From a virus, in IMG/VR virus record IMGVR_UViG_3300027857_000001, positions 32,001 to 96,000 of that record: DNA of 64,000 bases, one strand, 5' to 3'. A program made the translations under genes and the position numbers. Below, one piece after another: positions 1-30,288 of this stretch (its first letter is position 1; the number at the start of each line of letters is the position of its first letter). The notes under the pieces are model-generated. The model was not told the DNA's origin. It made no database searches and worked only from the letters and a program-made list of their open reading frames with translations.

Positions 1-9
1 GATCATGTA

Positions 10-522
10 ATGTCTTGTCACATGTCGCCAGGTGATGAGGAGCCGCAGCGGGAGCATCCGCGGGAGGTCGGCGATAACGTGCGCCGGTACCGGGAGTTCC
101 GGGGCATGAGCCAGGAAGCCCTCGCCCGCGAGATGGTGAAGCGGGGTTTCCCCTGGTTCCAGTCCACGGTCTACAAGGTGGAGCACTCGGGGCGGCGCAT
201 GGAGATGTACGAGGGCCGCGCCGTATGCGACATCCTCGGCATCTCCGTCGACAGGCTGTTCTGGGCCGGCGATGAAGCTGCCGAGATGGCGCTGGTCGAA
301 GGTGCCATCTCATCGCTGAGGCAGGCGCACGACGAGACCGCCCGGGCGGTCGCGCGGCTTGACGCGGCCGCGCGCGCCGCCGCGCGCACCCTGAGGGACC
401 GCGGCGGCAGCAGGTACGAGCGGGTCCGGGAGACCTGCGGCGACCTGGAGGCCGAGCTGGGATCGTCCACGCTCGACCTGGCCGTCGCGAGAGCGGGGGA
501 GATCCTGGATGGTGACAGCTGA
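10..522 (+). CDS. XRE-family HTH transcriptional regulator
   Basis: VGDNVRRYREFRGMSQEALAREM...STVYKVEHSGRR is an XRE HTH pattern; stop overlaps the integrase start (TGATG). Confidence 0.75.
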   Translation: MSCHMSPGDEEPQREHPREVGDNVRRYREFRGMSQEALAREMVKRGFPWFQSTVYKVEHSGRRMEMYEGRAVCDILGISVDRLFWAGDEAAEMALVEGAISSLRQAHDETARAVARLDAAARAAARTLRDRGGSRYERVRETCGDLEAELGSSTLDLAVARAGEILDGDS

Positions 523-2168
523 TGGCGTACGCGGAGCGGGTGAGATCCCCGAAGGGCGACTACTGGCGCGGCCGGTACCAGGACCCTGACGGCCGGTACC
601 TCACCGTGCGGGACGCAGGCGGCCGGGTCATAAGGTACCCGGCGAAGCTGGACGCCGAGCATGGTGCCGACGACGCCGAGTCAGCGGTCCGCGGCGGCGA
701 CTGGATCGACCCGCGTGCGGGGCTGGTCACGTTCGGGGAGTGGGCCAGCGCGTGGTACAGGAAGCAGGACCTGGCCGAGTCCACGATGGAGAACTACCGG
801 CAGCACCTCGTGTACCACCTGCTGCCGTATTTCCAGCACAAAGCCCTCGCCGACATCAGCGAGGAGATGATCGGCAAATGGGCCCGGTCAGAGAGGGCCA
901 GGGGCTACGAGCCGGACAGCATCAGGACCTGGCGGGCCACCCTGCACACCTGCCTGGAGGACGCGACAGGCACGCACATCAGCGTGAACCCGGCCACCCG
1001 GAAAAGGGGCAGGGGGAAGAGATCGGGCCGCGCCGCCGGGGACAGCGCCGAGGAGAAGATGATCACCGACCCGCTCGGCGTCCTGCTCATCGCCGAGCGG
1101 ATGGCGATACTCTCCGGCCGCGACGACGAGCTCGTCATGGTCGTCACGGGATTCTGGGATGCGCTGCGGCTCGGCGAGACTGTCGGCCTGGAGAGCAGGT
1201 ACGTGCGTCCCCGGACACTGCGGGTGGACTGGCAGCTTCACGAGATCGGCGGGAAAGACCCCGGGACCGGCGCCCCTGGCGGCCGGCTGGTGCGCTGCCC
1301 GCCGAAAGACGGATCGAGGGGGACGCTGGACCAGCCGCAGTTCCTCGCCCGCCTGCTGGCCGAGCACATCATGCGGACCCGGCCGGAGCCATGCCCCTGT
1401 CACGGGAAGACCTACGTGTTCCGCGGCATGGGCATCCCGCGAGGCCCGCGCGGCTCCATGTCGATGCGTGAACTGGCCGCCCTCGCCGGGGTGTCGGAGA
1501 CCGTGGTCGCGACGGTGCTCGGCAAGCCGGGCCGCGTCAGCGAGCAGACACGCCGTCACGTCGAGGCTGTCATCGCCGCGTGCGGCTACCGGCGGGAGGC
1601 GGGGACGGACCGTCCCGCGTGGCACTGGCGCAGGTCCGCGTTCGAGGAACTGTTCACGGCTGCGGCATCGGGATGGCTCCCGGCCCGCGCGCCCCTGCCG
1701 CGCCGCCCCGTCCCGGTGGCCGGGGACTGGCCGGGCATGCGGGTGCGGGGCCGCAACGCGCAGGGCCGGGCGCAGTTCTGCTGGCTTCCTGTCGCCGAGG
1801 GGCTCACTCCTCACGGGCTGCGCCACTCGGCGAAGACGTGGATGGAGGAGGAGGGGATACCGGAGGTGCTGAGCGAGCAGCGGCTGCGCCACGAGATCGC
1901 CGGGATCTCCGGCCGGTACCGTCACGTGACGCAGAGGATGCGCGACGAGCTCGTGGCTGCGATGACGGCGGCGTGGGAGGGCGCGCTGGACGCGCGGCTG
2001 GCGATGTCGGAGCGCTCGCCGGCAGCGGTGCTCGACACGCTGCTGCGGGAGCGGCTCGAGGCGCGCAGGCCCAGGGCCGTCCCCAGGAATTCCCCAGAAA
2101 CAAGTGAAGCGGTGCTCCCGTTTCCTCGGGGCACCGCCTCTGACCTGGGTCGGGGTGGCCGGATTTGA
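522..2168 (+). CDS. int: Tyrosine recombinase/phage integrase with an internal LacI-like HTH insertion
   Basis: Catalytic motifs LRLGE (R), HGLRH (HxxR), LRH and RYRHV (Y); N-terminal arm-binding-like region; 3' end overlaps the att core. Confidence 0.9.
   Translation: MAYAERVRSPKGDYWRGRYQDPDGRYLTVRDAGGRVIRYPAKLDAEHGADDAESAVRGGDWIDPRAGLVTFGEWASAWYRKQDLAESTMENYRQHLVYHLLPYFQHKALADISEEMIGKWARSERARGYEPDSIRTWRATLHTCLEDATGTHISVNPATRKRGRGKRSGRAAGDSAEEKMITDPLGVLLIAERMAILSGRDDELVMVVTGFWDALRLGETVGLESRYVRPRTLRVDWQLHEIGGKDPGTGAPGGRLVRCPPKDGSRGTLDQPQFLARLLAEHIMRTRPEPCPCHGKTYVFRGMGIPRGPRGSMSMRELAALAGVSETVVATVLGKPGRVSEQTRRHVEAVIAACGYRREAGTDRPAWHWRRSAFEELFTAAASGWLPARAPLPRRPVPVAGDWPGMRVRGRNAQGRAQFCWLPVAEGLTPHGLRHSAKTWMEEEGIPEVLSEQRLRHEIAGISGRYRHVTQRMRDELVAAMTAAWEGALDARLAMSERSPAAVLDTLLRERLEARRPRAVPRNSPETSEAVLPFPRGTASDLGRGGRI
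2078..2101 (+). repeat. Arm-type integrase site, copy 1 (CGTCCCCAGGAATTCCCCAGAAAC)
   Basis: Exact direct repeat of 2341-2364; internally two TCCCCAGRAA units. Confidence 0.8.
2111..2135 (-). terminator. Stem-loop downstream of the tRNA fragment (possible terminator after integration)
   Basis: GGTGC(T)CCCG-tttcct-CGGGGCACC hairpin just 3' of the tRNA end on the minus strand. Confidence 0.4.
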
Positions 2169-2191
2169 ACCGGCGGCCTCTTCGTCCCGAA
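2147..2191 (-). tRNA. 3' half only of tRNA-Pro(CGG) = att core, not a functional tRNA
   Basis: Reverse complement TTCGGGACGAAGAGGCCGCCGGTTCAAATCCGGCCACCCCGACC gives anticodon loop (CGG), T-arm and acceptor 3' strand; the 5' half is absent. Confidence 0.85.
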
Positions 2192-2340
2192 GAAAGTAGC
2201 CGTAAGTTCACGGGTTACGTTAAACCAGGATGTTCTCACTGTTCCGACCAGGACGTTTTCGGTTCGCCAGGTCAGAGGCCCAACGGCAAAGTCGCGTTCA
2301 GCGGCGTTCAGCGATATCCGCTCACGTTCACGGCTAGTCT

Positions 2341-2364
2341 CGTCCCCAGGAATTCCCCAGAAAC
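2341..2364 (+). repeat. Arm-type integrase site, copy 2
   Basis: Identical to 2078-2101. Confidence 0.8.
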
Positions 2365-2484
2365 GCCGTCCGCCGGGTTGCCGAGTCGGCTTGCCGCCGT
2401 CAGGCAGAACCCCATCCACGAATGCCCGGAGACTGACTCGCACCGTCTCGTGGTCGCAGCGATCGGCGCGATCTCAAGATGGAT

Positions 2485-3618
2485 GTCTCAGCAGATACGG
2501 CGCTGAGCGGACGTTGCGGCCGCAGAGGCCCCAGGGTCGAGGCGCTATTGAGGTGGATGTCTCAGCAGGTACGCACCCGAGCATGCGTTACCACCGCAGC
2601 CCGGCGGAGACTCGTGTTGCGTCGGCATCACGTCTCAGCGTTTACGCAGCTGAGCATGCGTTGCGACTTGACCGGGGTAGCGGTCAGGCCGACCAGGTAG
2701 GCGTCGTCTCAGCGTTTACGCAGCTGAGCATGCGTTACGACAACGCGCACGAACACAAGCGCACCTGGGACAGCCGGGTCTCAGCGTTTACGCAGCTGAG
2801 CATGCGTTGCGACCAGGACGAGGGCTCCACCCGCGGCCAGTCTCAGCTCAGTCTCAGCAGGTACGCAGCTGAGCATGCGTTGCGACGCCGCATGCACTCA
2901 TGGCACGGGTAGGTGGTGGTGGTCTCAGCAGGTACGCAGCTGAGCATGCGTTGCGACTCTTACAGGGTATGCTTCACCGTTCCTGGGATAACGGAGGTCT
3001 CAGCAGGTACGCAGCTGAGCATGCGTTGCGACCGCGCACACGCCACTGGCTTCGCTGCCTCGGCGTGGGTCTCAGCAGGTACGCAGCTGAGCATGCGTTA
3101 CGACGTCCAGGGTGCCTTCAGCCGCACGCTCCACCCACAGCGTCTCAGCAGGTACGCAGCTGAGCATGCGTTGCGACGCCGCATGCACTCATGGCACGGG
3201 TAGGTGGTGGTGGTCTCAGCAGGTACGCAGCTGAGCATGCGTTGCGACCGCGGAGTGGACATCCCGCCCGACGCATGGGATCTGAGGTCTCAGCAGGTAC
3301 GCAGCTGAGCATGCGTTGCGACTAGCGCTAAATTAGTGCTAACTTACCGTTGCGTGTGGTCTCAGCAGGTACGCAGCTGAGCATGCGTTGCGACCATGAG
3401 CGCGCCAGGATTGCCGAAGCGGTGCTTGAGTTCGTCTCAGCAGGTACGCAGCTGAGCATGCGTTGCGACCTTAACGTTGCCCTAGATCGAGTGCAACCAT
3501 TAATCCCGGTCTCAGCAGGTACGCAGCTGAGCATGCGTTACGACCGTAGGACAAACGTGAGGAGGCGACGACCATGGACATGGTCTCAGCAGGTACGCAG
3601 CTGAGCATGCGTTACGAC
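2485..3618 (-). CRISPR. CRISPR array: 16 repeats of 36 nt, 15 spacers of 35-39 nt; consensus (minus strand) GTCGCAACGCATGCTCAGCTGCGTACCTGCTGAGAC
   Basis: Repeats start at 2485, 2559, 2632, 2706, 2778, 2851, 2922, 2997, 3069, 3142, 3213, 3287, 3359, 3434, 3509 and 3583. Degenerate copies are at the left end, so the leader is on the right and transcription is on the minus strand. Confidence 0.97.
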
Positions 3619-3713
3619 CGCTCCCGGTTTTCACCGGGTATGGCCTGCGGGAATGCGGTGGCTTGCGAGCGGTCCTGAATGCTGGCCTCTAGCGGCTTAA
3701 CCGCCGCTCAATC
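3619..3713 (-). promoter_or_regulatory. Putative CRISPR leader
   Basis: Non-coding and adjacent to the conserved end of the array; contains CCCGG-ttttca-CCGGG and AGCGGC-ttaacc-GCCGCT hairpins. Confidence 0.55.
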
Positions 3714-3880
3714 CAGCCAGGGTTCGTGCCGTGTGACCTGCACGCGAGCGGCCCCCGGGGGTTCCGGGCACCACCGGGCCGCTCGCACGGACAGCCCGGG
3801 GGACGTTCAGTACAGCGGACAGCAGCAGAGCTGTCCCGGGCAGGCTCCCGCATCTGCGCCGGCCAGGGATGCCTGGCTGC
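3714..3880. ncRNA. Candidate structured RNA between the array and the wHTH gene
   Basis: Nested complementarity: CAGCCAGG(3714)/CCTGGCTG(3872), GCGAGCGGCCC/GGGCCGCTCGC (11 bp), GGACAGC/GCTGTCC. No credible ORF. Confidence 0.35.
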
Positions 3881-3950
3881 GCGCGGTGAACCTGCCGCCC
3901 CGTCAGTGGCGGACGGGCACGCCATGGGTTATGGACTTGTCAAGAAACAG

Positions 3951-3976
3951 CCTGCACCGGAGTCTACCGGCGCAGG
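3951..3976 (-). terminator. Hairpin downstream of the 219-aa gene
   Basis: CCTGC-A-CCGG-agtcta-CCGG-C-GCAGG. Confidence 0.35.
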
Positions 3977-4012
3977 CTTAGCCTGTCGTCAGGCGTGGCC
4001 GCCGTGAGCCGG

Positions 4013-4672
4013 TTATGCCGTTGCCGGGACCGGCTGGATACCGCCGCCTCGCGCCTCAGCGTACGCACCGGCCCAGTCCCGGGTGAAGTACAGCCGGTCA
4101 CCATCCGGGGCGACGCAGCCATGCTCGGTGAGCACGTCGATCTCCTCCGGGAGCAGCACCGACGGGTCGTAGCCGGCGCGGTCGAGCGCGGTAGAGGCGT
4201 CGTACAGCATCTCGGCCACGGCCTCCAGCCCTGCCAGCCGCTCAGCGGCGGCGTCGCGGCGTATCTCCAGCTCGCGCAGCTGCCTCTCGGCGATGCGCAG
4301 GTCGCTTTCCGCGTGCCTGAGCTCCCGCGTGGCGGCTGCCTTGCGCTGGTCGAGCCGTCGTTTCCGTGCGTTGAGCCACCTGCGGTGCTGCTCCATCCGG
4401 AGCTTCGCCGGGACCTGCGGCCGTTCCCTGGCCTGCTCCAGGCCCTTCTCCGAGATCCGGTAGAAGATCGGCGGCCGGCCGGGCTTCCCTGTCGGCATGG
4501 GCTGCCGGTCGATGATGCCCTCGGCCACGCCGGCTTCCAGCCAGCGCCGCACTGTGCTGAGAGACGGGTTCCTCGTCAGGGCCAGGCCCTTGTTCCAGGG
4601 CCTGCGCGGCTGCTGTTTCGCGACGGCCGCGGTGATGGCCAGTGCGGTCTTCAGCTTGCGGCGGTTGCTCAT
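4013..4672 (-). CDS. Winged-helix DNA-binding protein with long coiled coil (CRISPR-adjacent)
   Basis: STVRRWLEAGVAEGIIDRQPMPTGKPGRPPIFYRISEKG matches the wHTH wing pattern (GRPxxxYxL/ITxxG), followed by heptad-rich helix; ATGA-coupled to the upstream gene. Confidence 0.7.
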   Translation of the reverse strand: MSNRRKLKTALAITAAVAKQQPRRPWNKGLALTRNPSLSTVRRWLEAGVAEGIIDRQPMPTGKPGRPPIFYRISEKGLEQARERPQVPAKLRMEQHRRWLNARKRRLDQRKAAATRELRHAESDLRIAERQLRELEIRRDAAAERLAGLEAVAEMLYDASTALDRAGYDPSVLLPEEIDVLTEHGCVAPDGDRLYFTRDWAGAYAEARGGGIQPVPATA

Positions 4673-4857
4673 GCCGCCAGCTTCCGCTGCCGTTCGCGCA
4701 GAGCCCGCTGGGCCATGACCCTCGCGCAGCCCTTCGAGCAGTACACGGCGTCAGCCCGGCGGTTCCTGAACGCGCTCCCGCAGTCCGGCCGGGCGCAGGT
4801 CCGTCTCTCCGGCATCGGCTGCTCGCAGTGGGGGCACAGCTCGGTGGTGCGCTTCAC
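4669..4857 (-). CDS. Small zinc-finger protein (62 aa)
   Basis: CPHC...CARPDC...YCSKGC, resembling CGNR-type zinc fingers, with a basic C-terminal helix. Confidence 0.65.
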   Translation of the reverse strand: MKRTTELCPHCEQPMPERRTCARPDCGSAFRNRRADAVYCSKGCARVMAQRALRERQRKLAA

Positions 4858-4866
4858 GTCGGCAAG

Positions 4867-4881
4867 GTATCACGGTGATAC
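4867..4881. promoter_or_regulatory. Palindromic operator GTATCAC-G-GTGATAC overlapping a candidate leaderless promoter
   Basis: Perfect 7-1-7 inverted repeat 10 nt upstream of the GTG at 4857; minus-strand TACCTT (-10-like) sits 6 nt before the start. Confidence 0.6.
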
Positions 4882-5087
4882 GTTCCGTGCGGGCTGAAAT
4901 ATCACGCCACGGTGAGGGAATAAGCGGTTACCACCTGAGGTCCGGTGCCGTATGCCTGTACTTCCCGTCCGGCCAGGACGCACGTTCCTCGATCTCGGCG
5001 GCACGGGCCCGCCATTCCCCGGACAGTGCCAGTTCTTCGGGTGACGAGTCCTCTGGCCATGGCGGGTACAGGCCGGCGCTCCTCTGC

Positions 5088-5204
5088 TCATCGGTCCGCC
5101 GGTCGTAGAGCAGCGCCAGCGGCAGCGAGTACGGCCTGGCATTCGCCGACCGTCTGCGCGGCCGGGATCGCGGTTGTGTAGTTCAGCGGCCTGCCGCTAG
5201 CCAT
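5088..5204 (-). pseudogene. Truncated phage-type gene (38 aa)
   Basis: MASGRPLNYTTAIPAAQTVGECQAVLAAAGA resembles the N-terminus of a longer phage protein family (recalled motif LNYTT..A..TVGE.Q..LA..GA); coupled to the ASCH stop. Confidence 0.35.
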
Positions 5205-5697
5205 CGCTCCCCTCCATCTGCTTCCGTACTGCCTTCTCTACGTCATCAGGTAGCCGCCACAGGCCGAGAGCACCCCGGCACGGGACCGGCTCAGCGAGCG
5301 GGCGGACGTTCTCCAGGAGCCAGTGGTACTGATCGCGGACCGCCCACGGCGAGCACAGCGGCCGGGTCGCGCCGCACGTCCCGCCGAAGTCAGGGCTCAG
5401 GTGGCAGCCGGACAGGCCGGCTACCGCGACTATGACGCCCTGGCCGGATGCGGCCTCATCGATCTCGAACCCGCACGCCTCGACGGCATCGAGGATGAGG
5501 TAGTTCTCCACGTCGCTGCGGTCCGGTCTGGTCTTGCTCGCGTGGATGGCAATAAGGCCCCGGTAGGCCGTTCCCCACGTGCGGTTCTCGACCGGCTTCG
5601 CCCCGATGGCGATCGCCCAGGCGTACGGCTGCCTGATCGAGAGCGCCCGCATGGCGTCCGGCTTGCCAGCTGGCATGTCAGTGAGCATGCGGGCCAT
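5197..5697 (-). CDS. ASCH domain protein
   Basis: ALSIRQPYAWAIAIGAKPVENRTW...RGLIAIHA is the ASCH signature. Confidence 0.85.
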   Translation of the reverse strand: MARMLTDMPAGKPDAMRALSIRQPYAWAIAIGAKPVENRTWGTAYRGLIAIHASKTRPDRSDVENYLILDAVEACGFEIDEAASGQGVIVAVAGLSGCHLSPDFGGTCGATRPLCSPWAVRDQYHWLLENVRPLAEPVPCRGALGLWRLPDDVEKAVRKQMEGSDG

Positions 5698-6031
5698 CGC
5701 CAGCTACCTCCGGGTGTCTCCCGTTCACGTAGAGCCGCATCTCTTCGACAGCGTTGCCCACCGCTTCGCCGACGCTGGCCACGCCCGCATCGAACCCGGC
5801 CGCGTAGGCGTCCCGGTCGCCTGGCACCAGGAGCGTCATCGTGCGGCCTTCCGCTCGCCGGAGCACGTCGTACCAGTCCGGGTGCTGGCTATCCCAGGGG
5901 GTGTCGGTGGTGTACCAGTTGCCGATGTTCGCCTTGTTCGACACCCACACCTCCTGACGCGGCTCGCCCCAGTCGATGGCGACCACGGAGCCGGTCGGGG
6001 GTTCCGGCTTCAGATACTGGTCAGGTGCCAT
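5678..6031 (-). CDS. Hypothetical protein
   Basis: Operon packing, codon bias. Confidence 0.55.
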   Translation of the reverse strand: MAPDQYLKPEPPTGSVVAIDWGEPRQEVWVSNKANIGNWYTTDTPWDSQHPDWYDVLRRAEGRTMTLLVPGDRDAYAAGFDAGVASVGEAVGNAVEEMRLYVNGRHPEVAGDGPHAH

Positions 6032-6127
6032 CGCTGTCCTCCTCGTCGTCGTAGCAGGTGCACGAGCAGTCGCACTCACCGCAGTCAGGGCACGCCTCGC
6101 GGGTGTAGACGCACAGGGAGCACGTCA

Positions 6128-6424
6128 TCAGTGGTCCTCCTTCAGCCTGTCGAGCATGGCCAGCCGCAGCACGCATTCGGCCTCGGTCATCCGGTGGCCC
6201 GCGTCCCACGTGCAGCGGGAGCAGATCAGGGTGCCGTCCTGCGCTGTCTCGGGGGTCGCCGACAGCGGATGGGTCGTGAGAGCTTCCCGCAGCGCGGCCA
6301 GGGTGCGGCGGAGATCGAAGTAGGCGGTGCGCCGGAGAGTGGAACCAGACAGGCTCAGCTTCGCAATGTTCTCTTCGTTGCGCTGCTCGATCGCGTCGAG
6401 TGCGGCGGCCAGGTCGTCAGCCAC
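6128..6424 (-). CDS. Hypothetical protein
   Basis: Operon packing; CxxC at C-terminus. Confidence 0.5.
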   Translation of the reverse strand: MADDLAAALDAIEQRNEENIAKLSLSGSTLRRTAYFDLRRTLAALREALTTHPLSATPETAQDGTLICSRCTWDAGHRMTEAECVLRLAMLDRLKEDH

Positions 6425-6722
6425 TTGCGCCCTCCTCCCCGAGCAGCTCACGGGTGATCGCCTCGCGCAGGTCACGGGCACACGCGGCGCGGACCCAGCC
6501 GCGATCCTCGGTCAGCGCCGACACCGGGCCGTCATCGATCTCGTCCCACTTCCCCGGCATCCCCAGTACCGCGTCCAGCGCGGCCAGGAGCCGGGGGACA
6601 TCAGCGGCGGATGCACCCGCTGCCGCCGGGCTGGCGTATGCGAGCGCGGCCCGGTTCCTGATCCTGGCCAGCTCGGCACGGACGGGACCGGGGTCTGGTG
6701 CGTGCCCTGCCGGGTCAGTCAT
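6417..6722 (-). CDS. Hypothetical phage protein
   Basis: Overlapping start/stop; DVPRLLAALDAVL motif is common in phage early proteins. Confidence 0.55.
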   Translation of the reverse strand: MTDPAGHAPDPGPVRAELARIRNRAALAYASPAAAGASAADVPRLLAALDAVLGMPGKWDEIDDGPVSALTEDRGWVRAACARDLREAITRELLGEEGASG

Positions 6723-7209
6723 CGAACCCGTCCGCGTACGAGCACAGCAGCCATGCCGGCTTCTCCGCGACCGGCGTCAGGCCGAGCGTCCCGAGCGCGG
6801 CGGCGAGCTGCTCGTCCCAGCCGCGCCGGGTCGCCTCGTCCGCGCCGAGCAGTCCGCCGGCGTCCTGCGGGTTGCCCCGGCTCGCCTCCAGCGCCTTCGC
6901 GGCCAGGATGAACATCGGCGCGGTATCCGAGCAGTGGATGACGATCGTGACGCCGAGCAGCTCCAGCGCCTCCTCGCGGTGCTGGTAATAGTCCGCCGAG
7001 CCGTCTTCCGCAGTGAAGCCGGCAGCGGCCAGAAGCTCGTCCTCGGCTTCAGCGGCGAACGCGCTCAGGTCATCCCAGTGGCTGCACCGCTCGTCGTGCC
7101 AGGGGACAGCCAGCTCCCCGTACTCACCGACCTCGCGGACCTTCCACTCGTCGTCGGCGCTGCCCAGGTCGTAACCGTAGGCGAGGATCGCGTCTGTTGA
7201 CCGGCCCAT
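6715..7209 (-). CDS. Hypothetical protein
   Basis: RBS (AAGGAG) and operon packing. Confidence 0.65.
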   Translation of the reverse strand: MGRSTDAILAYGYDLGSADDEWKVREVGEYGELAVPWHDERCSHWDDLSAFAAEAEDELLAAAGFTAEDGSADYYQHREEALELLGVTIVIHCSDTAPMFILAAKALEASRGNPQDAGGLLGADEATRRGWDEQLAAALGTLGLTPVAEKPAWLLCSYADGFDD

Positions 7210-7212
7210 TCG

Positions 7213-7446
7213 TTACTCCTTTCCCGCCGTTACGGCGGCTGTCTCATCCCACTGCCCGTATTCGGCTAGCGGGATCACGCCGAGCTTCACGCCTTCAGCG
7301 AGCACAGTCGCCGCGGTGAGCGCCAGCAGCGCGTGCACCTGGGCGAGCTGCCCGGCCTGGACGTGATGGTTACGAAGCTCGCCCTCGTAGTCCGCGGCGG
7401 CCATGGCGAACCGCTCAGCTATGCGAAAGTGCTCCGGTCCTGTCAT
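7213..7446 (-). CDS. Hypothetical protein
   Basis: ATGA coupling. Confidence 0.55.
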   Translation of the reverse strand: MTGPEHFRIAERFAMAAADYEGELRNHHVQAGQLAQVHALLALTAATVLAEGVKLGVIPLAEYGQWDETAAVTAGKE

Positions 7447-7715
7447 CGGCTGTCCACTCCTGTCGTTGCGGCGGTCATCTCAAGCAGCTCCAGCCCGTAC
7501 ACCCAGAGCCGCACGTGCGTCGTGAACCCGGCTGAGGCCCGCACCGAATACCCGGCGCACTCCTCGCACTCCATCCGGGTCCGCCTCTGCGGCGACAGCC
7601 CGGTCAGCCAGTCGGCGACGACCAGCCGGGTGGCGGTGGCGTGCCGGCACGTCTCGCAAGTCAGCGGCTGCTCAGGGCCGGCTGCCGCAGGCACGGCCGC
7701 CGGATCGGCACTCAT
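7443..7715 (-). CDS. Hypothetical Cys-containing protein
   Basis: TGATG coupling; two CxxC motifs. Confidence 0.5.
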   Translation of the reverse strand: MSADPAAVPAAAGPEQPLTCETCRHATATRLVVADWLTGLSPQRRTRMECEECAGYSVRASAGFTTHVRLWVYGLELLEMTAATTGVDSR

Positions 7716-8056
7716 CAGGGCCTCACCCCGGCCTCGTCGACGCTCCCGCGCACCCCCATGCGCCCGAGCAGGCCCATGGTCCGCAGCACCCGCAGCACCG
7801 GCTCGGCGGTGCACGCGATGGCGAACTGGCTGCCACGGGCCTCCTGACGTTTCATCGCGCCCACCAGGACGCCGACGCCCACGTTGTCGAGGAACGTGAC
7901 GCCGTCCAGGTCGATGACGAGCGGGGCAATGTTCTCCTCGGTGATGCTCCTGGCCAGTTCGCGAAGCTGCGGGGCGGTGCGGAAGTCCACGGACCCGGCG
8001 ACGGTGATGACCACCAGGTCGTCAGACGTCTCGTGGCTGAGCCTGATCGCGGTCAC
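7715..8056 (-). CDS. STAS-domain anti-anti-sigma factor (BldG/RsbV-like)
   Basis: VVITVAGSVDFRTAPQLR...LVIDLDGVTFLDNVGVGVLVGAMKR...ACTAEPVLRVLRTMGL; GTGA coupling. Confidence 0.85.
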   Translation of the reverse strand: MTAIRLSHETSDDLVVITVAGSVDFRTAPQLRELARSITEENIAPLVIDLDGVTFLDNVGVGVLVGAMKRQEARGSQFAIACTAEPVLRVLRTMGLLGRMGVRGSVDEAGVRP

Positions 8057-18753: not shown

Positions 18754-18769
18754 CTGTAGCGTGGATGGT

Positions 18770-19948
18770 GTGTTCGAGACGGTGCGCTACACCTACCGCC
18801 TGCGCCCTGGTACGCAGGCGGAACGCGCGCTGCTTGACGAGTGGGGCCGGTGCCGCTGGCTGTGGAACGAGGCCGTCAACCAGCGCAGGACCGGGCGCAA
18901 GCCGACGTTCTGCAAGCTGTCCAAGTTGCTGACCGCGGCACGAGCGGCAAACGAGTGGCTCCGCGAAGGTTCGCAGGTCGCGCAGCAGCAGACGCTGCGG
19001 ACATACATGCTGGCCCTGGACCACTCGTTCAAGGTCAAGGGACGGCGCACGCCGGTGATCAAGCGGCGCAAGGACACCCTGCCGTCGCTTGAGTACACCG
19101 TGCGCGGGTTCTCTGTCCGCGATGGCCGCCTGTGCCTGCCCAAGGGCGTATCGGTACCCGTGGTGTGGTCCCGCGACCTGCCGTCTGCCCCGTCGAGCGT
19201 CCGCGTCTACCAGGATTCGCTGGGCCACTGGTACGCGTCGTTCGTCGTCACCCGCGAGGCTGAGCCTGCGCCGGAAGCCAGCGGGAAGATCGGCATCGAC
19301 TGGGGTATCAAGGTCACGGCCACGGCCACGGACCCGGCTTACGATCTGCCGTACGGTGGGCACAGGAAACGCTGCGCGGCTGAACTGGCGAGGGCGCAGC
19401 GGAAGATGAGCAGGCGCCGCAGGGAACGCGGCCAGCCCCAGTCGAACGGGTACCGCTGTGCCAGGCGGGAAGCAGCGGAGCTCCACAAGAAAGCCGCACG
19501 GCAGAACACCCACGCGGCCCGCGTGTGGGCACGGCGGATAGTGGACCATCACCAGGTAATAGCCGTTGAGGACTTCAGGCCGCTGTTCCTGGCTAAGTCC
19601 ACGATGGCGCGTAAGTCCGCTGATGCCGCGGTAGGTACCGCGAAGCGGGCGCTGATCGAGTATGGCAAGCGGGCGGCCCGGAAGGTGGTGCTGGTTCCGC
19701 CCGCCTACACGACGATGACGTGCGCTGAGTGCGGTACGAGAGCCAAGGAACGCCTCACGCTCGCCGAACGGGTCTTCGTGTGTACGGCCTGCGGATGTAT
19801 CGCGGGCCGTGACGCGAACGCCGCGAGAGTGATTCTCGCCCAGGGTGAACGCATCCTGGCTGGTGCTGACGACGTAAGACAACTCCCTTGCCTCCCTTCA
19901 GGGGTAGCGGGCGGAATGCGGTCTGAGCCAGGAATCCCCCGGCACTAG
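18770..19948 (+). CDS. tnpB: TnpB RNA-guided endonuclease
   Basis: RYTYRLRP N-terminus; RuvC IGIDWG (D), IAVEDF (E), RDANAA (D); zinc finger CAECG/CTACG; stop lies inside the right-end hairpin. Confidence 0.92.
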   Translation: MFETVRYTYRLRPGTQAERALLDEWGRCRWLWNEAVNQRRTGRKPTFCKLSKLLTAARAANEWLREGSQVAQQQTLRTYMLALDHSFKVKGRRTPVIKRRKDTLPSLEYTVRGFSVRDGRLCLPKGVSVPVVWSRDLPSAPSSVRVYQDSLGHWYASFVVTREAEPAPEASGKIGIDWGIKVTATATDPAYDLPYGGHRKRCAAELARAQRKMSRRRRERGQPQSNGYRCARREAAELHKKAARQNTHAARVWARRIVDHHQVIAVEDFRPLFLAKSTMARKSADAAVGTAKRALIEYGKRAARKVVLVPPAYTTMTCAECGTRAKERLTLAERVFVCTACGCIAGRDANAARVILAQGERILAGADDVRQLPCLPSGVAGGMRSEPGIPRH

Positions 19949-29171: not shown

Positions 29172-29739
29172 GCCGCACGACCGATCGGCGTTACGGCCTG
29201 CTCGCTGCCGCCCTGATCCGCAGCCGCGTCAGGTGCGCTGGCACCCGCCGTATTCTTTGCCCGGCCGGTACGCCGCGGGGCCGCCGGCGACGAGAGCTTC
29301 ACGCGCCCGAAGAACAGCAGCGACCAGGCAGCGGCGATGATGGCCAGGTCCACGATGCCGCGCACCAGGATGTCCAGCTCAGGGGGGCTCACCGCCGGCC
29401 CCCGTTTGCGAGCGCAAGTGCCGCATCTTCGTGCCGCCGCCACGCGCGGTAGTCCCGCTCGTCGCGGTAACGCCGCAGGCGGAACAGGGCAAAGGCGGCG
29501 GTGACCAGGAGGGCCGGGACGCCGGCCGTGATAAGGGTCGGGGTCACCGCTCGCCACCGCCTTCAAGCCGGGCGTAGGCTCTGACCGCAGCGACGAGGCG
29601 CGCCACGGTAACGACGGCCAGGATGATCACGCAGGCCGCCACGACGAGCCCGAGGAGCGCGAGGCCCCAGACCCACACCGGGTAGTCGGGGATCATGTCG
29701 CCCTCACGATCCTCGGCCCTGCCTCGTTCAGGCACGCGG

Positions 29740-30288
29740 TCATCCCGTACCACCCGTGACGGCGTCGAAAATATCTCTCACGAGCCTCGCGTCAGCGAGC
29801 GCGGTATGGGCCTCGTAGGCGGCCGGGTCGATGCCCATCACGCTTGCGGCATCAGCGAGCTTGAGCGGGAACGGCAGACGGCGTCCTTGCGCAGCGGCCC
29901 AGCCGCGCACGAGACTCCCGGCGTCCTGAAGGTGGTAGTCCCACGCCGGGCACTGCCCGTTCGCCCGCAGGAACATGTCCAGAAAACTTGTGTCGAACGC
30001 CGGGTTCGCGGCGGCGATCATCGCGCCGGCTGTCAGCGACGCGACGGTCCCGGCAACGCAGGCCGGTTCCGCCCACTCCAGCGGGGAAAGCTCGGCGAGG
30101 CGCTGATAGTACCGGTTGACCCTCAGCGCGCCAGGATCGGCGGCGGCGACGTCCGGCTCGATCAGCCAGGTGAACTCCGAATCCTCGCGACCCGTGCTGT
30201 CGTCCCGGATGATGACGGCGATCTCCCACAGGTCGTGGCGAGCCGGATCGGTCCCGGTGGTTTCACAGTCGGTGAAGGCGAGTCTCAC
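29740..30288 (-). CDS. DnaQ-like DEDDh 3'-5' exonuclease
   Basis: TDCETTG, NPAFD, AHTALAD motifs. Confidence 0.85.
   Translation of the reverse strand: MRLAFTDCETTGTDPARHDLWEIAVIIRDDSTGREDSEFTWLIEPDVAAADPGALRVNRYYQRLAELSPLEWAEPACVAGTVASLTAGAMIAAANPAFDTSFLDMFLRANGQCPAWDYHLQDAGSLVRGWAAAQGRRLPFPLKLADAASVMGIDPAAYEAHTALADARLVRDIFDAVTGGTG

Follow-up and report, generated by a model that had tools for sequence, protein, structure and literature searches.

This analysis concerns a CRISPR array carried by a phage and located near one end of a 64,000-nucleotide (nt) stretch of DNA, hereafter the window, which makes up bases 32001-96000 of one 135,301-bp contig (IMG/VR record IMGVR_UViG_3300027857_000001). 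With a probability of about 0.8, the array is a genuine type V-M (Cas12m2-like) array that has its own promoter and a conserved leader and was orphaned by breakage of the phage's own locus. It represents part of a known system left stranded, as opposed to a novel kind of RNA-guided machine. The element that carries it is a complete temperate actinophage, circularly assembled at 135 kb, as can be concluded from its portal, terminase and tail genes, its lysogeny module and the completeness of the contig (an overlap of 127 bp between its ends, direct terminal repeats and a CheckV value of 100%). The genome has a G+C content of 70%, and its source is probably a soil metagenome. Actinoplanes phage phiAsp2 and Streptomyces phage TurkishDelight have terminases with ~50% identity to that of this phage.

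The array occupies positions 2485-3620 of the window on the minus strand, with 16 repeats and 15 spacers, and begins 120 bp from the second copy (2341-2364) of a 24-nt direct repeat beside the phage attachment site (attP). An initial annotation, made from the letters of the window, had given the same counts, a distance of about 120 bp from the attP arm and a 36-nt repeat ending in a 6-bp stem and AC, all of which were borne out. The repeats are direct, 36 nt long and spaced 71-75 nt apart, leaving spacers of 35-39 nt, of which 14 of 15 are unique; the repeat-spacer-repeat unit at 2851-2957 is exactly duplicated at 3142-3248. Read on the minus strand, the repeat is GTCGCAACGCATGCTCAGCTGCGTACCTGCTGAGAC, and its 3' end is formed by the stem CTCAGC/GCTGAG and a final AC. 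At the left end of the array two repeats are degenerate; these are followed by three with the linker variant GTT, and the 11 nearest 3620 have AGG instead. The leader must therefore lie on the right, with the array read on the minus strand from the leader-proximal repeat (3583-3618) to the trailer end at 2485. Fourteen of the 16 repeats are intact, and a covariance model matches all 16 on the minus strand. Nowhere in the phage is there a complement of the repeat longer than 13 nt that could serve as an anti-repeat or trans-activating CRISPR RNA (tracrRNA). The covariance model likewise finds no solitary repeat elsewhere in the phage, save for one weak, chance-level match at window 4592-4624 (plus strand, 20.8 bits, E = 0.025), antisense inside a gene for a 219-amino acid (aa) protein, which is probably a product of chance in GC-rich DNA.

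The family to which the repeat belongs can be identified by its structure. Exact searches with a 27-mer from the repeat drew a blank in 185,579 species-representative genomes, as did those with a 20-mer and a 19-mer among viral contigs. A repeat pattern that was degenerate in the loop and kept the stems led to one 113-kb IMG/VR contig (L006/L007), on which an array lies directly beside the gene for a 605-aa protein with an end-to-end match to the PADLOC Cas12u1 model (V-U1, i.e., Cas12m; 1e-97). This contig shares no protein with the phage. Its array, at 8000-10400 of L006, has more than 27 repeats, with a spacing of 72-74 nt only near the effector and an irregular 42-250 nt beyond. A Cas12m profile was built from 56 homologs of the 605-aa protein, and 25 cas12m loci were fetched from species-representative genomes. 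Where an array is detectable at these loci, it lies ~100-200 nt downstream of cas12m on the same strand, and its repeats are ~36 nt long and end in GAC or AAC. The window's repeat was aligned with 16 cas12m-adjacent repeats, giving 17 sequences with stem I in columns 8-12/21-25 and stem II in columns 15-20/30-35. The resulting two-stem pseudoknot is paired in 86% of cells and shows compensatory changes in all 11 of its pairs, a fit that none of 500 shuffles reaches and that drops to 28-44% paired in slid controls. Stem I of the window's repeat is ACGCA/TGCGT and most relatives have GGCT/AGCC-type pairs, so the fit rests on covariation and not on sequence identity. The same two-stem layout is found in CRISPR RNAs (crRNAs) used experimentally with Cas12m proteins (Ms, Tf, Go, Mm and others; PMC11013384, Table S5). 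The array repeat is accordingly assigned, on its covarying sequence, to the type V-M (Cas12m) family, Cas12m2-like, as the initial annotation had suggested in proposing a type V, Cas12m-like repeat; related and identical repeats do lie beside cas12m genes.

The identical repeats come from a cognate locus. Running the degenerate pattern on metagenome contigs identified L040, a 4,040-bp contig from soil with 66% G+C, whose array contains 15 repeats; 12 of these match the window's older linker variant exactly. Over 364 aligned columns, the leader in L040 shares 90% identity with window 3619-3980, and both have a TTGACA motif. About 1 kb upstream on the same strand lies a Cas12u1-type open reading frame (ORF), cut by the contig end, that covers model positions 261-528 (7e-39). 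An array downstream of cas12m is thus found in L040, with the identical repeat, and is not found in the phage, where there is no intact cas12m. Downstream of the array's trailer end, at 3-1061 on the minus strand, L040 encodes a Cas4-Cas1 fusion (Pfam PF01930, 3e-16, and PF01867). Full-length relatives of the L040 effector are 650-790 aa long and at most 59% identical to the L040 ORF. One of them, P0082, matches the Cas12m2 structures 8HHL and 8HIO at 4e-42, and GoCas12m is also among the best solved relatives. Proteins of this clade have the H-D-D RuvC triad (AVHTGWR, vDxWe, VDQDxNM) of the non-cutting MmCas12m2, and carry one to several helix-turn-helix (HTH)-like inserts in the N-terminal half (P0082-P0095; Pfam HTH_23 in P0084) that are missing from the ~600-aa Cas12m proteins. 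The contexts of the cognate cas12m genes are in some cases chromosome-like and in others phage-like or integrative. For instance, the array of L047 is followed by an integrase, L053 has tail genes and a serine recombinase, and L052 shares five gene families with the phage (GntR, FtsK/TraB-like and three others).

A conserved leader and a promoter accompany the array in the phage. The leader, GC-rich, structured and ~330 nt long, lies at 3621-3980 (minus strand). It is shared across the Cas12m2-like clade, where its conservation can be followed through six loci (window 3621-3980, L040 2109-2465, L052 12287-12638, L053 7906-8285, L047 4434-4725 and L048 9956-10266); in canonical cas12m loci the corresponding length is 100-200 nt. 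Invariant islands within it are GCGAGCG, two copies of CGCTCGC, with either of which GCGAGCG could pair, and two copies of GCAGGTCA. These islands could be leader motifs that act at the DNA level. RNAalifold on the six leaders gave weak covariation (term -1.1), so that a conserved RNA fold of the leader is unsupported. The non-coding stretch 3621-4012 does fold better than shuffles (z = -3.3), and the structured non-coding stretch recognised in the initial annotation is therefore real and can now be named as the conserved leader of a Cas12m clade. The idea that 3621-4012 is a dead cas12m was ruled out, with no tblastn signal. A promoter-like TTGACA is found at 3943-3938 on the minus strand, and transcription of the array is expected, from its sequence, to start there. 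Just upstream, at 3978-3949 on the minus strand, a terminator-like hairpin (12-bp stem, nine GC pairs, then GTTTCTT; a consensus match only) closes the operon of the 219-aa protein and a 62-aa protein. On the side of the leader, the phage and L040 cease to be homologous near window 3980, and in L052 the cas12m stop codon lies ~45 nt upstream of the leader's TTGACA motif; the whole promoter-leader-array unit is therefore intact in the phage.

The effector itself was sought in six frames of the complete genome, by tblastn with both Cas12m clades and by profile searches. No intact cas12m exists in the 135-kb genome, only a 5' fragment comprising the first ~135 codons, which lies in an open 151-aa frame at genome 29844-30218 on the minus strand and matches model positions 6-130 of 656. 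This fragment scores 8e-35 with our own profile and 5e-8 with the independent PADLOC model, and tblastn aligns it to P0082 at 4e-20 with 48% identity; all other Cas12m matches in the genome are zinc-ribbon ends of three TnpBs. Beside it, at genome 29641-29910 on the plus strand, is a Cas1 fragment of ~90 codons (34.5 bits against a Pfam cut-off of 22.3, profile positions 11-102), within which the DNA at 29654-29789 is 97.8% identical to part of the L040 cas1 and has a sharp breakpoint at 29654. The two fragments are joined head-on (genome 29641-30257). Together they occupy the sequence 1.7-2.4 kb ahead of the start of the window (1.8-2.2 kb for the cas12m piece), and the lysogeny module separates them from the trailer end of the array, which is 4.2 kb away. 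Cas2 and Cas4 were not found in the phage genome. The presence of cas12m and cas1 relics means that a once-complete locus was broken, and it can be read from these sequences that the phage descends from an element with a complete effector-array-adaptation locus whose genes were destroyed by rearrangement. With its own cas12m and cas1 broken, the phage is left with an array that has no partner protein. The initial annotation had recognised no cas-like ORF in the 64 kb, and this stands for cas1, cas2, cas3, cas6, cas7, cas9, cas13 and cas12m, though not for a TnpB/Cas12f-like gene at 18761-19948. It had also allowed that a cognate cas12 elsewhere on the element, or homologous arrays beside a standard cas12 with the small genes as unrelated neighbours, would undo its case for a non-canonical module, and this is largely what has emerged: homologous arrays lie beside cas12m, the small genes are unrelated neighbours, and the element does hold a cognate cas12m, albeit a broken one.

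How the locus broke can be outlined in part. Several insertion sequences (ISs) lie nearby. A 60-nt relic at L040 2477-2536, between cas12m and the leader, is 85% identical to window 18775-18834, the 5' end of a tnpB like the 395-aa gene. It is located exactly where homology between L040 and the phage stops, a position that hints at IS-mediated breakage. A single inversion with breakpoints in cas1 and cas12m would account for the head-on junction. The order of the rearrangements can only be inferred and is not recoverable.

Cas12m has been shown to work without a tracrRNA, to mature its pre-crRNA itself and to bind DNA while leaving it uncut (PMC11013384; PMC10442227). Because Cas12m both processes and uses the pre-crRNA, the array alone would be inert. 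A cognate H-D-D Cas12m present in the same cell, whether encoded by a co-resident prophage, on a plasmid or in the host chromosome, would be expected to turn the transcript into crRNAs of ~50-60 nt, and these would direct DNA binding that depends on a protospacer-adjacent motif and involves no cleavage, silencing the transcription or replication of rival mobile elements. As to past activity, the window and L040 arrays have no spacer in common, and the 11 leader-proximal repeats carry the derived linker variant, from which it follows that spacers were gained after the two lineages split. The chances are about even that the array is at present an inert, recent relic. That it could still be used with a Cas12m provided in trans falls somewhat short of even odds.

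Several points weigh against this account of an orphaned, possibly serviceable V-M array. The single inversion leaves unexplained why the array lies where it does. The cas1 shard of the phage (97.8%) is as well preserved as the repeats, promoter and leader, so the break is simply recent and the intact array is no proof of selection. For the whole array, no protospacers were found in the phage collection, and a search of IMG/VR with the guide seeds from three spacers (15, 14 and 12) gave no match; nor is there a self-target in the phage. An effector acting in trans is a conjecture. Lastly, L040 is only 4 kb long and comes from another sample, and its kinship to the phage is established for the CRISPR unit only. 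Absent database matches for spacers are weak evidence in any case, and the one match of the whole array in the plasmid collection (24 nt, a Weissella plasmid, E = 0.3) is taken as chance.

The alternative that survives best is that the array is kept by selection as a module of guides only, one that silences competitors or genes of the host by means of a Cas12m belonging to the host or to plasmids and prophages in the same cell. This is possible, although the odds are against it. The intact promoter, leader and 14 of 16 repeats are what it would lead one to expect, and cognate effectors do occur on chromosome-like and on temperate phage-like or AICE (actinomycete integrative and conjugative element)-like contigs of high-GC bacteria, one of which shares the five gene families with the phage. 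A locus with identical repeats exists in another soil sample, and it is established that viruses can carry mini-arrays served by Cas proteins of the host (PMC11656645). Further support can be drawn from the spacers. Three of the 14 unique spacers have a G+C content of 52% or less, as against 1.7% of phage 37-mers (binomial P = 0.0016), and the same is seen in L040; in both arrays (window 2668-3582; L040 1072-2072) such low-GC spacers make up about a fifth, against a 70% G+C background. Low-GC windows in the phage are mostly intergenic, and the low-GC spacers would suit a silencing effector aimed at promoters or other intergenic targets, while targets of lower G+C could also be their source. 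Some of them look like promoter or ribosome-binding regions; spacer 15, for example, has AGGAGG with an ATG 8 nt later. The cas relics stand in the way of this alternative, as they show that the array began within a complete cis locus and was not captured as guides alone. The array is, moreover, no better preserved than the dead cas1 shard, and neither a target nor a host effector has been found. The fullest form of this alternative, in which an actively maintained module from an undescribed V-M variant clade hitch-hikes on Cas12m2-like silencers of the host or of co-resident elements and represses rivals or host promoters, is doubtful.

Alternatively, the array and leader may have been picked up from a host chromosome by imprecise prophage excision, so that the phage never owned a complete system. 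The array lies 120 bp from the attP region, the classical place of captured host DNA, and some cognate cas12m genes occur in chromosome-like contexts. This is nevertheless improbable: fragments of cas12m and cas1 from the same clade lie across the integrase module, where a single excision error would not place them, cognate loci are also found beside integrases and recombinases on phage-like contigs, and no tRNA adjoins the array in L040.

The lysogeny module next to the array is complete and sits between the array and the cas relics. It comprises a tyrosine integrase gene and the attP core and, upstream, a repressor-like HTH gene together with two excisionase-like genes. The integrase (548 aa, 522-2168, plus strand) has Pfam matches to Phage_int_SAM_3, Phage_integrase and LacI, the last of these being a LacI-type HTH (residues 314-358) inserted between the SAM-like and catalytic domains; no close relatives of it were found in IMG/VR. 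The attP core, at 2149-2191 on the minus strand, resembles the 3' end of a tRNA and is marked by a spike in read depth with loose ends at 2149 and 2191, where the matches are to other organisms' tRNA genes. A complete tRNA was not detected there by ARAGORN. The core is bracketed by the exact 24-nt direct repeat (2078-2101 and 2341-2364; family D10, copies 100% identical), whose first copy falls within the 3' end of the integrase gene. These repeats could be arm-type sites or the scar of an attP replacement. Contigs from the probable source run agree with the window and break within the array, leaving bins 3001-3600 uncovered, and sequencing run X2 yielded only tRNA-like pieces and pieces like the 219-aa gene. 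Megablast of window 1-6000 against phages and plasmids gave no match, and an Rfam search of window 1-8000 with E up to 1 returned no family. At gathering thresholds, the search took in most of the genome (the window plus four flanking loci), and the sole Rfam match is one phage-encoded tRNA (genome 24671-24744, minus strand).

A very improbable alternative is that the array serves as an RNA anti-CRISPR (Racr)-like decoy, in which repeat transcripts soak up the Cas12m of the host and blunt its immunity against the phage. An effector-less array borne by a phage, with repeats that keep an intact protein-binding scaffold, could in principle act in this way, and single repeat units that inhibit Cas proteins have been described in viruses (PMC11656645). 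However, the Racrs described are solitary repeat units, and the phage has 15 diverse spacers of normal length behind a canonical leader and, apart from the chance-level match at 4592-4624, no solitary repeat. The lack of any spacer in common with the nearest relative also fits adaptive turnover.

Lastly, the initial annotation had raised the possibility of an undescribed guided regulatory system composed of the array, the structured RNA and the two small proteins, of which use of the array by a phage TnpB can be seen as a variant. In its favour, the two small genes do sit upstream of the leader, where related loci have cas12m, and the crRNA core of Cas12m does resemble the guide-RNA core of TnpB (PMC11013384). 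The possibility is nevertheless scarcely credible, because homologs of the 219-aa protein occur on five contigs without an array, the 62-aa gene is not conserved beside them in the three contigs compared, neither small protein resembles Cas12m, the operon is set apart from the array by a terminator-like hairpin and a separate promoter-like motif, and the TnpBs are ordinary IS605-type proteins whose genes lie 10-70 kb away and have no repeat-like sequence near them. The small genes are independent of the CRISPR unit. The 219-aa protein (4013-4672, minus strand) is a phage protein with a winged helix and a coiled coil, its model combining a small winged helix with a helix of 77 residues and a C-terminal domain that is likewise small (predicted local distance difference test score, pLDDT, 84.7) and having only weak PadR/MarR-like fold matches. 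It has 24 homologs; five contigs carrying them are phage or mobile-element DNA, and in two of these the homolog precedes terminase genes. It has no tblastn match in phages and belongs to no Pfam or PHROG family. The suggestion that it is a truncated Cas12m was ruled out (hhalign probability 0.6%). The 62-aa Cys-rich protein (4669-4857, minus strand) has weak matches to NinG and zf-CGNR, and its gene is not conserved upstream of 219-aa homologs in the three contigs compared. The annotated operon of a zinc finger and a winged HTH is thus confirmed for the winged helix, in the model, and remains weak for the zinc finger.

The TnpB/Cas12f-like gene of the window encodes 395 aa (18761-19948, plus strand; PADLOC Cas12f 1.5e-34, Pfam OrfB_IS605 and Cas12f1-like TNB), and two more tnpB genes lie outside it, at genome 21845-22993, where two DDE transposases flank the gene, and at 104954-106054. 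The three TnpBs are mutually 28-32% identical, and the covariance model finds no repeat-like unit near any of their genes. They look like ordinary IS605-type passengers, and the product of 18761-19948 is not the effector of the array.

The orphaned V-M array gives an early-stage view of a virus-borne array turning cas-less, in which the effector and adaptation genes have been lost and the promoter, leader and array kept. Rearrangement of this kind is one concrete route to the orphan arrays that are common on mobile elements. If the array does work with an effector in trans, it would be a natural case of guide-only exploitation of a non-cutting, silencing CRISPR effector. The findings also point to a Cas12m2-like clade on high-GC soil elements that seemingly has Cas4-Cas1 and a long conserved leader, both of which V-M lacks in surveys. 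For instance, a 2023 survey found V-M associated with arrays and with no other cas genes (PMC10691335). The Cas4-Cas1 fusion of L040 and the cas1 shard of the phage are a hint, drawn from one 4-kb contig plus the shard, of a V-M variant with adaptation genes. Should the array prove to be a selected set of guides, its source clade would be an undescribed V-M variant of temperate actinophage-like elements, characterised by 650-790-aa H-D-D effectors with HTH inserts, a ~330-nt leader with invariant inverted-repeat islands, and Cas4-Cas1.

Comparison with known systems can place the array more closely. The TnpB/omega-RNA systems of IS200/IS605 elements are similar in that the phage has three tnpB genes and in that their guide-RNA core is related to the crRNA core of Cas12m; the TnpB guide, by contrast, is ~150 nt long and encoded at the gene's own 3' end, and the phage tnpB genes have no repeat-like sequence near them. 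Racrs are alike as virus-encoded repeat RNAs without an effector, and differ in being solitary repeats where the phage has a full spacer-bearing array and leader. The cas-less arrays and mini-arrays of viruses that use host Cas proteins (PMC11656645) are alike in being cas-less and virus-borne and in their likely use in competition between elements. Those described have one or two spacers and repeats identical to the host's, whereas the phage array has 15 spacers and was orphaned by decay of its own locus. V-M systems are themselves enriched on plasmids and present in some prophages (PMC11656645), and myxophage MV-1 (bioRxiv 10.64898/2026.09.14.751636) is another tailed phage with a V-M array and no detectable protospacers. 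MV-1 encodes an intact 610-aa D-E-D Cas12m and no adaptation genes, while the phage described here has gene fragments only, a piece of cas1 among them. From the V-M systems as described, the present case differs in the absence of an intact effector from the phage, in the larger proteins of the cognate clade (650-790 aa, with HTH-like inserts), in the ~330-nt leader and in the Cas4-Cas1 fusion of L040, V-M having been described without other cas genes (PMC10691335). It is like MmCas12m2 (8HHL, 8HIO) and GoCas12m (8PM4) in its 36-nt repeat, in the arrangement of stem I, stem II and pseudoknot, and in the GAGAC end; as in other V-M systems there is no anti-repeat or tracrRNA, the relatives have their array downstream of cas12m on the same strand, and the cognate clade has the same H-D-D triad as MmCas12m2.

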